From an uncultured Candidatus Saccharibacteria bacterium (GTDB lineage: Bacteria > Patescibacteriota > Saccharimonadia > Saccharimonadales > AWTP1-31): DNA of 64,000 nucleotides. Of the stretch, positions 12,001 to 15,000 are shown one piece after another. The first letter of the stretch is position 1. Each line of letters begins with the position of its first letter. Made by a program: the position numbers. The stretch covers positions 1,036-65,035 of the forward strand of contig CAZHBD010000002.1 in the NCBI GenBank assembly GCA_964530555.1, given 5' to 3'.

Positions 12001-15000
12001 AGGTATTAAAGAGCTCGATGAATGTTACGTATACAGCTTTCAGCACGATACGACAAAGCTTGTTCGCGGCATCAAACAGAACCTTGAGGGCGAGGGTCTT
12101 GGAGACCTTGCAAGTCGTATTGCAGTAGATACAGACGATGCAATCAACCCAGACTATTTAGAGCAACGAGCAATCGAGTATCGTGATGAGTTCAAAAAAT
12201 ATGCAGGCAGAATCTTTTTGCCATTTTTTGCAGTTGATGACGGTCGTGGATTGCGTGAAGTACGTTATAGTACTGACATTTTAAGCCGAATTAAATGGTC
12301 TGATGCCGATGTCACTAAAATTGGTAGTTTGAATCTCGAAAATAAGACCACAGACGATATTACGGTAGCAGTAACTATCGACTCAGACGGCAAGCCACAA
12401 GCCACCAAGTCTTCATCATTAAGCTACGAGTCAGAGCTAGACACTGAATACGTAGCACGGCAGATTGTTGATATAGTTCCTAACCCTTGGGTTGCCTATG
12501 AGACTGCAAATACGGCTCTAGACTCTCTGTTAAAGACCAACGATATAGAAGTGGTGGCAAGCAATCTAGTCTTCGTCATAGAGTCTCTACGGAGCTTGTT
12601 ATTTAGCGAACGTGACAGACTTGCTGAGACTACATTCAAAACAATGCTAAAAAGTGGCGAAATGAAGTTCTACCTGCTCAGTGACCAGCCATTACGCAGT
12701 GTGGCAAATGTACGCAGTAAGCGTCGTTTACGCAACGGTGCAGATGAAGACTTACAAAGAAGCTTATTCGACTATGTGCCAAGTGAAGACGTAAACGGTC
12801 TAGAAGAAGCGGTAGCTTGGTATCTCGATGACCAAACAAAACTACTCTGGTGGTATCGCAATATGAGCAAGGCTGACTATCGTATTCAAGGCTGGCGACC
12901 AAATCGTATATACCCAGACTTCTTAGCTGCCAACAAAGTCGACGATGACTTCGACAAGGTGTATGTTCTTGAATCAAAAGGCGACCAGCTTGTTGGTAAC
13001 GATGACACTGAGTATAAGCGTAGTGTTTTTGAGCTATGCAACACTCTAGCAGTAGAAAAGAGCTGGAAAGAGCTAGACCTTGGGCAGACAGAACGTGACT
13101 TCCACTTCGAAATGCTAGACCAGAAGAGCTGGAAAGACCAGTTGAATCGACTGGTAGCCTAATGGCTGATCTACTGCCGTCAGATATAAAAAAGTTCAAA
13201 GCCCTGTACAAAGAGAAGTTCGATATCGAGCTTGATGATGTGGCTGCACGACATTAAAATATCGCTTGTCATGCGTTTTTCGTATGTCTTGAATCCAGTC
13301 GTAATCCGACTGGTCTATGTCTGGGTATGCGAGTGCTAAATATGCCATATAGGTACTATACTAACTTCTCTTTAATTACTGTAACAAGTTCGGGGAACCA
13401 GAAATCGGTAAAATGCCCCTTATTGGTATGTTCGTGATAGTCAGTACCGAGCATGTCTCGGATATGTTGTGGCTCCTCAATAGGTATGAAAGGGTCGTCA
13501 GTTGAAGCGAACTGTACTATCCAGTTCTGATTGGCTTTGATTGCTTCCCAATTCCAAGGCTCATCATAGTAGCCACTCATTCTTTCTGAACGAATACCGA
13601 GGTCGGTGTGCATAGCTCCAACAAGAACAGAGCCAAAGATACGATGTGTTTCCGCATACCGCATTGCAGCTACGGCTCCTGATGAGTGACCAACAATAAT
13701 ACTGTTCTCGTTTGCACCAAGTGCGTTCTCAATAAAAGGTAGCCACTTAAAAGACCGAGCCAGCATATTGTCTGGCATAGTCTGTGCAACGACCTCTAAG
13801 CCGAGTGCTTCTAGTTCGGTTTTGGCTTCGGGGAACCAAATGTCTTCAACGGTTGATCCACCGTTCCCATGAACGAAAATTACGTTAGGGCTACTCATTA
13901 CTTCTCCTCAAATTAAAAATAGACTTCGGATTGAAGCCTATTTGTTTTGGACTGTGCTGACGAGCTATTGCTCGATGGCTTCAATCATAGTGAAGCACAG
14001 CCCTGTAAGGCTGAGAAGGAGAAGGCTAATTTGATTTACTGCCTTGTGCATAACATACATTCTAAAATATCCGAGTAGTTATGTCAATCAAGCTAACTCG
14101 TTATTGTATAATATGTTTTATAACAGGGGTCGGCGAAAATAACACAAGCACTTGACAGGCATCTATGTCGCTAAGAATCATCTACTACCCCTGTTAGGGT
14201 ATGACCGACAATGTTGATTGTGCGACATGGTTCTCATGAGCCTAGCTTATTATCCAAGCATAGTGTTACCATAAATCTATGGATAAACAAACAGTAACGC
14301 TGATAGGCTCATTTAGAAAAGAAAGAAGCAAATTAGAATCAATCTTCAACGACTTATCAAAGCACTTCGAGCTACTTTGTCCTAAAAGTATTGATTTCAT
14401 TGACCACACGGCAGAGTTTGTTAAAGCTGCACATGAGATAGACGACAGCGTGAACGTTATTGAGGAACGTGTATTAGAATCTATACGAAAATCTGATTTT
14501 GTGTGGCTATTCTCTCCTGCGGGTTATGTAGGTATAAGTGCATCATTTGAAATTGGACTGGCTTATTCATTAGGTGTACCCGTATATACCGACACAGAGC
14601 TACAAGACGAAATGTTACAAACAATGATAACTGAAATAGTTAAAAAACCATTAGATGTTCAAGTCAAAGTACATAAGCCAGGTAAAGGTATATCTGGGCT
14701 ACAACGGTACTATCAAAGGGTTTCAAGCAGAAGGGGCTGGTCGAACGAATCGCCTAAAGATACTATGTTACTTCTTACAGAAGAACTGGGAGAACTAGCC
14801 AGAGCAATAAGGAAGTCAGAGGGTCTAAAGCGAGACGCTGGATACGATAATATTGGATTACAGGACGAATTGGCTGATGTGCAACTGTATCTTGTTCATT
14901 TAGCGAATGGTCTAGGTATAGACTTAGATGAAGCTGTTACACAAAAAGAACACAAAAATCACATACGTCACGAGAAAAGTAAGTAACTCTTTAATACACT

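Follow-up and report, generated by a model that had tools for sequence, protein, structure and literature searches.

What does a gene that joins a nucleoside 2-deoxyribosyltransferase (NDT)-like domain to a MazG-type domain do in a Saccharibacteria genome, and does its position next to a restriction-modification (R-M) system bear on the answer? The gene lies in a 64,000-nucleotide stretch of contig CAZHBD010000002.1 from an uncultured Candidatus Saccharibacteria bacterium (assembly GCA_964530555.1), to which we refer as the window. An earlier reading of the bare sequence, here called the original prediction, had placed the gene at 14116-14986 and had described its product as an enzyme acting on (deoxy)nucleotides through pyrophosphohydrolysis and N-glycosidic cleavage. 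The open reading frame (ORF) is real; it begins at 14279, with a Met start shared by the homologs in an alignment of 34 full-length, MazG-fused relatives (alignment A1), and the span first given takes in the upstream region. The description of the product is the best reading of the homology, and we lean toward a bifunctional nucleotide-degrading enzyme, a two-step destroyer that would sanitize the nucleotide pool by removing non-canonical or surplus nucleotides (for coordinates of all features, see Table 1).

At an E value of 1e-3 or better, 327 full-length homologs of the fusion protein were found in a collection of 5.8 billion proteins, corresponding to at least 327 clusters at 90% identity, and the best 120 of the 327 cover 81 to 100% of the query. 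Among the named homologs, one from Candidatus Saccharibacteria RAAC3_TM7_1, annotated as "MazG protein," is 57% identical and one from Mycobacterium is 47% identical. Best hits and conserved gene order also assign the window to Saccharibacteria (TM7). Cross-phylum identity amounts to ~45 to 57% over the full length, and conservation in A1 spans the whole protein. The AlphaFold2 model of the 235 residues has a mean predicted local distance difference test (pLDDT) score of 92.6 and a predicted template modeling (pTM) score of 0.83. Both halves belong to known superfamilies, and no description of an NDT/DNPH1-MazG fusion was found among 8 million papers.

Judged by sequence and predicted fold, the C-terminal half is a MazG-type nucleoside triphosphate (NTP) pyrophosphohydrolase with an intact predicted active site. 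The Pfam MazG family (PF03819) matches residues 158 to 233 with 38.6 bits against a cutoff of 22 (E = 1.3e-9), and it is matched by 34 of 34 family members. Sequence comparison with the PDB retrieved Bacillus subtilis YpjD (2gta, E = 1.3e-8) and DCTPP1 (7mu5, E = 5e-7), while a profile of the family matched RS21-C6/DCTPP1 with E = 1e-11. The model contains the four-helix MazG architecture (helices 136-152, 159-180, 194-212, and 216-234), for which Foldseek gave target-normalized TM-scores of 0.76 to 0.82 with YpjD (2gta) and 0.62 to 0.67 with DCTPP1 (7mu5). Together with the invariant acidic motifs listed in Table 1, these matches bear out the original assignment of an EExxE...D signature to this half.

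The first 135 residues of the window protein, by comparison, found no useful match in Pfam, NCBIfam, or PADLOC, and it is relatives and fold that place the N-terminal half. The Nuc_deoxyrib_tr family (PF05014) was matched at E ≤ 0.1 by 23 of the 34 full-length homologs (best E value, 3.5e-6) and by 28 of 36 N-domain-only relatives, which make up alignment A3 (best E value, 1.9e-8). When the A1 profile was compared with the PDB, it retrieved Rcl/DNPH1 (2khz, E = 0.014, positions 8 to 151) as well as the CMP N-glycosidase BcmB, and hhalign joined A1 to human DNPH1 with E = 1.2e-4 over 138 columns. The numbering of the human sequence used for this comparison fits every residue named in PMC10603095. 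Foldseek ranked YpjD first, then DNPH1 structures, and then NDTs and BcmB, with a probability of 1.00 to DNPH1 (8os9, 4kxm, and 8qhq), to NDTs (2a0k, 7o62, and 6evs), and to BcmB (4jen). The modeled N-domain has the flavodoxin-like alpha/beta fold of the NDT superfamily, viral NDTs match it likewise, and the searches did not place it in an unrelated fold. We therefore class the domain as a divergent NDT-superfamily branch. It is similar to nucleotide 5'-phosphate N-glycosidases and closest to DNPH1/Rcl, but it is not a DNPH1 ortholog. The original prediction had read a joint NDT/LOG signature from this half, represented by SASFEIGLAYSLGVPVY (residues 87 to 103), and only the first part of that reading held. 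LOG proteins carry the motif PGGxGTxxE, whereas the window protein reads P80-A-G82-Y-V-G85-I-S87-A-S-F-E91, with a different spacing and no Thr before the Glu, and no LOG family appeared in the Pfam/NCBIfam output for the window protein and its relatives.

The most telling residue of the N-domain is E91, which occupies the nucleophile position xxE(L/I)GxA behind the fourth strand. It is invariant in all 34 full-length homologs and in all 36 N-domain-only relatives, which are otherwise 26 to 51% identical to the N-domain of the window. Alignments of hidden Markov models pair it with the Glu of "afE(L/I)GyA" in the NDT 7o62 and in Rcl, and hhalign agrees. In DNPH1 the catalytic triad is Tyr24-Asp80-Glu104, and roles have also been assigned to I29 and R30 (PMC10603095). 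In the loop that aligns with these latter residues, G10 never varies and at least 90% of the MazG-fused proteins keep R13, with R, H, N, or K at position 13 in the wider N-domain family; the hydrophobic residues flanking the base are retained, F12 pairing with DNPH1 I29 and I61 with I76. The segment that matches the E55/H56 region of DNPH1 is longer and carries the family-invariant residues P35, F47, V48, and E53 in A1. E53 is E or D in the wider family, and E62 is at least 90% conserved in A1. In DNPH1, the phosphate is held by Ser98 and by the partner subunit's Ser128'; S87 of the family is nearly invariant, but hhalign has a gap there. As a whole, S87, the GS loop, and several glycines are invariant or nearly so, stand-alone N-domain proteins included.

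What this domain is joined to elsewhere offers a second line of evidence. A HMMER search with residues 1 to 135 against 1.84 billion representatives returned 556 proteins at E ≤ 1e-3 (representatives at 50% identity): stand-alone proteins of ~106 to 170 residues, many proteins joined to MazG, and others joined to NTPase_I-T/DUF84 (a further house-cleaning, non-canonical NTPase), to HAD hydrolases, HAD phosphatases among them, and to S-adenosylmethionine (SAM) methyltransferases. That the domain has been coupled to nucleotide phosphohydrolases more than once is the best indirect argument for a nucleotide-degrading reaction sequence. It also bears on whether the protein could be a classical NDT that swaps bases between deoxynucleosides for salvage, with the MazG half as an unrelated add-on. 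Such an enzyme would suit the facts that PF05014 is the matched Pfam family, that NDT structures are among the fold matches, and that Saccharibacteria depend on salvage. However, the loop reads GS(F/Y)R(K/R), as in the 5'-phosphate-specific DNPH1 and MilB, while classical NDTs probably have another motif at their N terminus; nucleotide N-glycosidases are the best sequence and fold matches, and every fusion partner acts on phosphorylated nucleotides; we therefore consider a base-swapping transferase very improbable.

In the bifunctional enzyme that we favor, the MazG/DCTPP1-like domain would hydrolyze a (deoxy)nucleoside triphosphate to the monophosphate and pyrophosphate, and the DNPH1-like domain would then cut the N-glycosidic bond of the monophosphate via a covalent Glu91-sugar intermediate. 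The end products would be the free base and (deoxy)ribose 5-phosphate, and the net outcome would be the irreversible removal of the nucleotide from the pool, in the service of either pool sanitation or salvage in a nucleotide-scavenging epibiont. The substrates are probably non-canonical or surplus nucleotides, because the gene is solitary here and has no regulator. Given the similarity of the two halves to DCTPP1 and DNPH1/BcmB, as well as the recurring DCD, ThyA, and (d)CMP-kinase-like neighbors of the family, our leading guess is a substrate of the modified deoxycytidine or deoxyuridine type, whereas bulk depletion of deoxynucleoside triphosphates (dNTPs) is less likely.

Two sets of observations weigh against this reading, the first of which concerns the N-domain itself. 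The window protein scores 13.6 bits (E = 0.078) against PF05014, below the cutoff of 28.8, and the sequence matches to DNPH1 are marginal (E = 0.014 to 0.3). Moreover, Tyr24 of DNPH1 is replaced by T7 (V, T, A, or S in the family) and Asp80 by V65 (His in most relatives), so that two of the three triad residues are unconserved. The glycosidase chemistry may therefore not be the same, or the domain might do no more than bind nucleotides. In the latter case, an N-domain without glycosidase chemistry would bind a nucleotide or nucleoside as an allosteric regulator or oligomerization scaffold for the MazG enzyme, and the MazG part might be a dUTPase or dCTPase that supplies thymidylate synthesis. 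The public annotations of the family, which mention the MazG part alone, go along with this idea, as does the locus of RAAC3_TM7_1 (L086, CP006915.1), where the fusion gene overlaps the DHFR stop codon by 8 nucleotides (nt) and the DHFR/ThyA/DCD/Tmk cluster would suit a step from dUTP or dCTP to the monophosphate. This cluster of thymidylate and dNTP genes is compact, comprising TK, Tmk, DCD, DHFR, the fusion gene, and a convergent ThyA at L086 1476-8631. Against a mere sensor, however, the residues that hardly vary even in stand-alone N-domains (E91, S87, the GS loop, and several glycines) argue for retained catalysis, and the family's own acidic residues E53 and E62 could replace the lost ones. 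In addition, a dUMP/dCMP glycosidase would oppose thymidylate synthesis, so that the thymidylate context argues for a sanitizing rather than a supply role. A non-catalytic N-domain thus seems doubtful to us.

The second set of observations comes from the genomic neighborhoods of the relatives. Our survey of genome contigs used the full-length alignment and was dominated by MazG-only genes, with three full-length loci, and the metagenome survey used an N-domain-only alignment. The thymidylate-cluster context is found in just one of nine Saccharibacteria loci, and the 80 metagenomic loci hold no relative of DCD, ThyA, DHFR, Tmk, or TK. At L092, the homolog lies between FtsA/FtsZ/NrdR/RNR and Map/Adk, with NrdR and RNR 3 kb upstream, which is a further hint of a connection to pyrimidine deoxynucleotides, and the other Saccharibacteria loci adjoin tRNA genes, serine recombinases, or a transposase. 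A different picture emerges in Actinomycetota, where at five of five loci (L006 to L008, L087, and L088) the fusion gene is followed by the gene for an AAA ATPase of ~800 residues and then by one for a P-loop protein of ~175 to 185 residues; at L088, DCD also lies 1.1 kb upstream of the homolog. The same holds for the metagenomes: the MazG fusion is present in 52 of the 80 loci, and an AAA gene (~750 to 830 residues) comes next in 31 of the 33 loci that have at least 1 kb of downstream sequence, often with a P-loop kinase-like gene behind it. The AAA protein combines one classical CDC48/FtsH-type module with an N-terminal domain of ~480 residues that has no family match, and the small P-loop protein bears a weak resemblance to (d)CMP kinases, matching TIGR02173 over its full length (E = 1.3e-4). 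This dominant context elsewhere fits a conflict system better than housekeeping. In the same direction points the GC content of the fusion gene, which lies 3 to 10 points below that of its flanks in most of the genomes compared (the window gene and homolog loci L086, L089 to L092, and L006 to L008), for instance 0.386 versus 0.48 in the window and 0.60 versus 0.68 in L008. The low GC content is a hint that the gene has moved horizontally between Actinomycetota and the Saccharibacteria that live on them.

The cassette itself, i.e., the fusion enzyme linked to an AAA ATPase, appears to be undescribed. It occupies positions 7001-11393 in L087 and 7001-12118 in L088 and is also present in L006 to L008 and in the 31 of 33 metagenomic loci mentioned above, which fall among L119 to L198. 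Some cassette loci add a stand-alone paralog of the N-domain, a faintly AlkD-like (DNA_alkylation) protein, or a winged helix-turn-helix protein of the Rv2175c type. The expectation that homologs might be housekeeping genes outside any defense context is half true for Saccharibacteria and untrue for the high-GC relatives, which sit in this mobile-looking cassette.

Could the fusion, then, be an anti-phage or conflict effector that destroys nucleotides (NTP to NMP to base and sugar phosphate), either starving phage replication or clearing phage-specific modified nucleotides? The adjacent AAA ATPase would be its controller in high-GC bacteria, and the Saccharibacteria copy would have been captured without it. 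Apart from the AAA linkage and the AT-shifted gene, this would be in line with the cassette flanks, which are otherwise unconserved and have a tyrosine integrase within a few kilobases in 6 of 27 loci, with the ApeA-like and EC042_2821-like genes that adjoin the L087 cassette, and with the several Saccharibacteria copies that have recombinases, transposases, or a tRNA hot spot in their vicinity. Predicted, unvalidated defense domains include MazG and MazG-linked kinase domains (PMC13092281), and MazG can stand in for the dNTP-depleting effector of PUA-Cal-HAD systems (bioRxiv 10.64898/2026.01.15.699771). On the other hand, PADLOC has 0 families for the window protein and the Mycobacterium homolog, and its matches to the AAA partner are confined to generic AAA regions (IetA and TRIP13); neither an AAA nor a kinase partner gene is present in the window; and the homolog in RAAC3_TM7_1 is translationally coupled to DHFR. 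Searches of 50,697 phage records, of plasmids, and of IMG/VR turned up no full-length homolog, and viral fold matches in BFVD are single-domain proteins only. An unregulated, broad dNTP destroyer would also be toxic. Given in addition that the R-M adjacency is secondary and that the gene is part of the syntenic backbone in the lineage of the window (see below), we regard an effector role of the window protein as possible but unlikely. It is tempting to speculate that the three-gene cassette (fusion, ~800-residue AAA ATPase, and (d)CMP-kinase-like P-loop protein) is a mobile conflict system of Actinomycetota and other high-GC bacteria, which upon infection irreversibly destroys canonical or phage-modified deoxynucleotides, first taking off pyrophosphate and then excising the base, and that Saccharibacteria, which live on Actinomycetota, took over the effector alone; this wider scenario we consider rather unlikely.

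The R-M system that had been noticed beside the gene is a genuine Type III Mod/Res pair, separated from the fusion gene by an opposite-strand serine hydrolase gene. As an argument for defense, however, this neighborhood was not borne out. In L002, whose homolog is 69% identical, the sequence is collinear with window positions 116-5576, from the left end through RNase Y (tblastx), and continues with tRNA-Pro(tgg), the homolog (equivalent to window 14267-14992), and a membrane protein of 216 to 218 residues (equivalent to window 15165-15791). L001, whose homolog is 83% identical, likewise has tRNA-Pro, the gene, and the membrane protein. Compared with both, window positions 7601-14210 (~6.6 kb) are extra, carrying a 101-residue ORF, tRNA-Pro(cgg), DUF488, Mod, Res, and the hydrolase. 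Positions 8318-14114 of this segment are bracketed by a direct repeat, with an exact 14-mer match between 8304-8317 and 14116-14129 and a G before both copies, and have a GC content of 0.43, versus 0.48 elsewhere in the window. At the 13 other loci with a homolog, the 6 to 8 kb around it hold nothing related to Mod, Res, DUF488, or the hydrolase, and among 80 metagenomic loci none was found with a relative of Mod or Res. The fusion gene is therefore part of the local chromosomal backbone (RNase Y ... tRNA-Pro, gene, membrane protein). Because the block is absent from the syntenic loci and bracketed by repeats, and because Mod and Res are not found near homologs, we read the Type III system as a later arrival, inserted at a tRNA hot spot and functionally unrelated to the fusion gene. 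As a general caution, R-M adjacency at such a hot spot is no evidence of a functional link.

The bracketed, defense-type block measures ~5.8 kb and has no recombinase gene inside, and its DUF488 protein matches the PADLOC candidate PDC-M45B. The serine hydrolase was considered as a functional partner and rejected, as it has no homolog near any family member. To the left of the block, the window has two tRNA-Pro paralogs, tgg and cgg, at 7524-7600 and 8180-8256, which are 580 nt apart and enclose a 101-residue orphan ORF (7631-7936); in L001 and L002, only the tgg tRNA-Pro is present upstream of the fusion gene.

Is the gene regulated through the palindrome that brackets TTGACA and a -10 element, as the original prediction had suggested? 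The repeat and the hexamers are real and form part of a module conserved in L091, but they are not specific to this gene. The arms are a perfect 10-nt pair, 56 nt apart. Their 9-mer has six copies in the 64-kb window, all intergenic, against 0.49 expected (twelve-fold), and none of 100 shuffles reached six. The promoter hexamers taken by themselves do not exceed the background: a stretch of 2 kb has 4 promoter-like sites, shuffled sequence has 4.4 ± 2.1, and the spacer from TTGACA to AAGAAT measures only 15 nt. In L091, the 30-nt stretch 14101-14130 has a 93% identical counterpart at 3221-3250, the inner promoter recurs as TTGACA-15 nt-TAAAAT, and all parts of the module at 14101-14210 (TTGTATAAT, TAACAGGGG, TTGACA-15 nt-AAGAAT, CTACCCCTGTTAGGG, and CCGACAA) are found at 3221-3330, ahead of an unrelated ORF for a 594-residue membrane protein. 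At the corresponding position, L001 and L002 have a tRNA and terminator in place of the module. In addition, TATAAT-nn-CCCCTGTTA stands ahead of two tRNA genes of the window, tRNA-Pro(cgg) and tRNA-His, and ahead of tRNA genes in L002 and L004. Since the 9-mer is present at tRNA promoters and the module precedes an unrelated gene in L091, the TAACAGGGG/CCCCTGTTA pair is best read as a general promoter-proximal element of these genomes and not as a dedicated operator of the gene. Thus, the module is best seen as a conserved, portable promoter, with arms that probably serve as binding sites for a general factor or as marks of the start of transcription, and transcription of the fusion gene probably begins from it, at either of the two candidate promoters (TATAAT at 14107 or TTGACA-15-AAGAAT at 14152-14178).

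The sites of CCCCTGTTA, those at tRNA genes included, are located in the window at 8005-8021 (+), 24587-24603 (-), 28694-28702 (one mismatch), 31494-31502, and 63714-63722 (one mismatch), as well as at L002 9755-9763 and L004 9574-9582. In three Saccharibacteria genomes, the 9-mer comes directly behind TATAAT ahead of tRNA genes, and it may be a conserved promoter or start-site element of stable RNAs or a site for a general DNA-binding protein. An element of ~45 nt, consisting of the hairpin CCAAGTTGA-GGGGA-TTCAACTTGG followed by GGAAGAGGAG, occurs at 8060-8105 (+) and 24440-24490 (-), with a weaker copy near 28560-28620 (-). It is conserved and belongs to the leaders of tRNA-Pro(cgg), tRNA-His, and tRNA-Arg(tct), downstream of the promoter. 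In the intergenic region that holds the fusion-gene module, there is also a near-consensus sigma-70-type promoter (TTGACA-17-TAGAAT, 11 of 12 matches) at 14059-14087 (-), which faces the serine hydrolase gene. The long upstream intergenic regions had raised the possibility of a riboswitch or structured leader, which we rejected: at gathering thresholds, all Rfam matches in the window were tRNAs, relaxed thresholds over 13850-14350 yielded nothing but noise, and RNA 14115-14290 folds no better than shuffles (z = -1.25). A tRNA remnant was considered as well, as MAFFT had put 14121-14150 on the 3' half of the tRNA-Pro of L001/L002; this weak similarity was dropped in favor of the direct-repeat and insertion reading.

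Table 1. Positions in the window of the fusion gene, its domains and predicted active-site residues, the upstream elements, and the neighboring inserted block
Feature	Position	Strand	Evidence or remark
Coding sequence, two-domain protein of 235 residues	14279..14986 (stop codon included)	+	ORF list, ATG start
N-terminal alpha/beta domain, ~residues 1-122	14279..14644	+	Family profile, Foldseek, hhalign, PF05014 in relatives
G10-S11-F12-R13 loop	14306..14317	+	hhalign to DNPH1 G27-S28-I29-R30
E91 codon, predicted catalytic nucleophile	14549..14551	+	Invariant in A1 and A3; aligns with DNPH1 E104
MazG/DCTPP1-type all-alpha NTP pyrophosphohydrolase domain, ~residues 135-235	14681..14983	+	Pfam, PDB, Foldseek
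E168-E169-x-x-E172 metal-binding motif	14780..14794	+	Invariant in 34 homologs
E197-x-x-D200 second acidic motif	14867..14878	+	Invariant in 34 homologs
Candidate outer promoter, TTG then perfect TATAAT (14107-14112)	14104..14112	+	Ends 8 nt before left arm
Inverted repeat, left arm TAACAGGGGT	14121..14130	+	10 nt, 100% complementary
Candidate inner promoter, TTGACA (14152-14157), 15-nt spacer, AAGAAT	14152..14178	+	Between the arms; TAAGAAT at 14172-14178
Inverted repeat, right arm ACCCCTGTTA	14187..14196	+	L091 counterpart CTACC(C/T)CTGTTAGGG
15-nt direct repeat GTTTTATAACAGGGG, left copy	8303..8317	+	Right behind tRNA-Pro(cgg) terminator hairpin
15-nt direct repeat GTTTTATAACAGGGG, right copy	14115..14129	+	At synteny breakpoint, right edge of block
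Inserted block (DUF488, Mod, Res, serine hydrolase)	8318..14114		Absent in L001 and L002; Pfam and PADLOC
DUF488 protein	8235-8846	-	Extends leftward past left repeat to 8235
Type III Mod	9024-10664		PADLOC MTase_III, E = 1e-155
Type III Res	10667-13162		PADLOC REase_III, E = 7e-186
Serine hydrolase	13356-13898	-	Between Type III system and fusion gene

If the two-step chemistry is true, a single polypeptide would unite the activities of two human sanitizers, DCTPP1 and DNPH1, the latter of which is a drug target under active study. It would provide a bacterial model for channeling an aberrant dNTP down to free base and sugar phosphate, and it would show a genome-reduced, nucleotide-scavenging epibiont policing its imports. 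The AAA ATPase linkage outside Saccharibacteria is, in its own right, a testable lead to a possibly new nucleotide-centered conflict system.

How does the fusion compare with known systems? Its C-terminal half (residues 135 to 235) finds its best sequence and fold matches in the single-domain MazG-type proteins DCTPP1/RS21-C6 and YpjD, with which it shares the EExxE...ExxD acidic motifs. DCTPP1 converts (modified) dCTP to dCMP and pyrophosphate, the same step that we propose here ahead of the glycosidase; in contrast to these enzymes, to which identity is ~30 to 38% over ~90 to 100 aligned positions (Foldseek), the fusion carries an N-glycosidase-like domain. With DNPH1/Rcl (2'-deoxynucleoside 5'-phosphate N-hydrolase 1, a 5-hydroxymethyl-dUMP N-hydrolase), the N-terminal half shares the flavodoxin-like NDT-superfamily fold, the invariant Glu at the xxE(L/I)GxA position of the covalent nucleophile E104, a GS(F)R loop aligned with GSIR 27-30, and hydrophobic residues at both base-flanking positions, and the role of nucleotide-pool sanitizer, known for DNPH1 (PMC10603095), is the one proposed here. 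It differs in the replacement of Tyr24 and Asp80, in the longer E55/H56 region with its own invariant residues, and in the marginal sequence similarity described above; moreover, DNPH1 is a single-domain homodimer, whereas the fusion protein is bacterial and joined to MazG. MilB and BcmB, the CMP and hydroxymethyl-CMP N-glycosidases of nucleoside-antibiotic pathways, also belong to the NDT superfamily and cleave nucleoside 5'-monophosphates, and BcmB was retrieved with the N-domain by sequence as well as by fold. The Arg of the N-terminal loop (R13 here and Arg30 in DNPH1) is common with R23 of MilB (PMC10603095). The fusion is less similar to these enzymes than to DNPH1, has no antibiotic-biosynthesis neighbors in the loci examined, and differs from them by its MazG domain. 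Finally, the dNTP-depleting anti-phage effectors (dCTP deaminase, dGTPase, and the PUA-Calcineurin-CE-HAD and MazG-HAD variants) differ from the fusion in that it has no homology to their models, that its second step would be glycosidic cleavage instead of dephosphorylation, and that the window copy is without a sensor or partner. They resemble it in concept, in that an NTP-cleaving enzyme is coupled with another enzyme for the further breakdown of its product, and the high-GC relatives of the fusion add a further likeness, their accessory AAA ATPase cassette.

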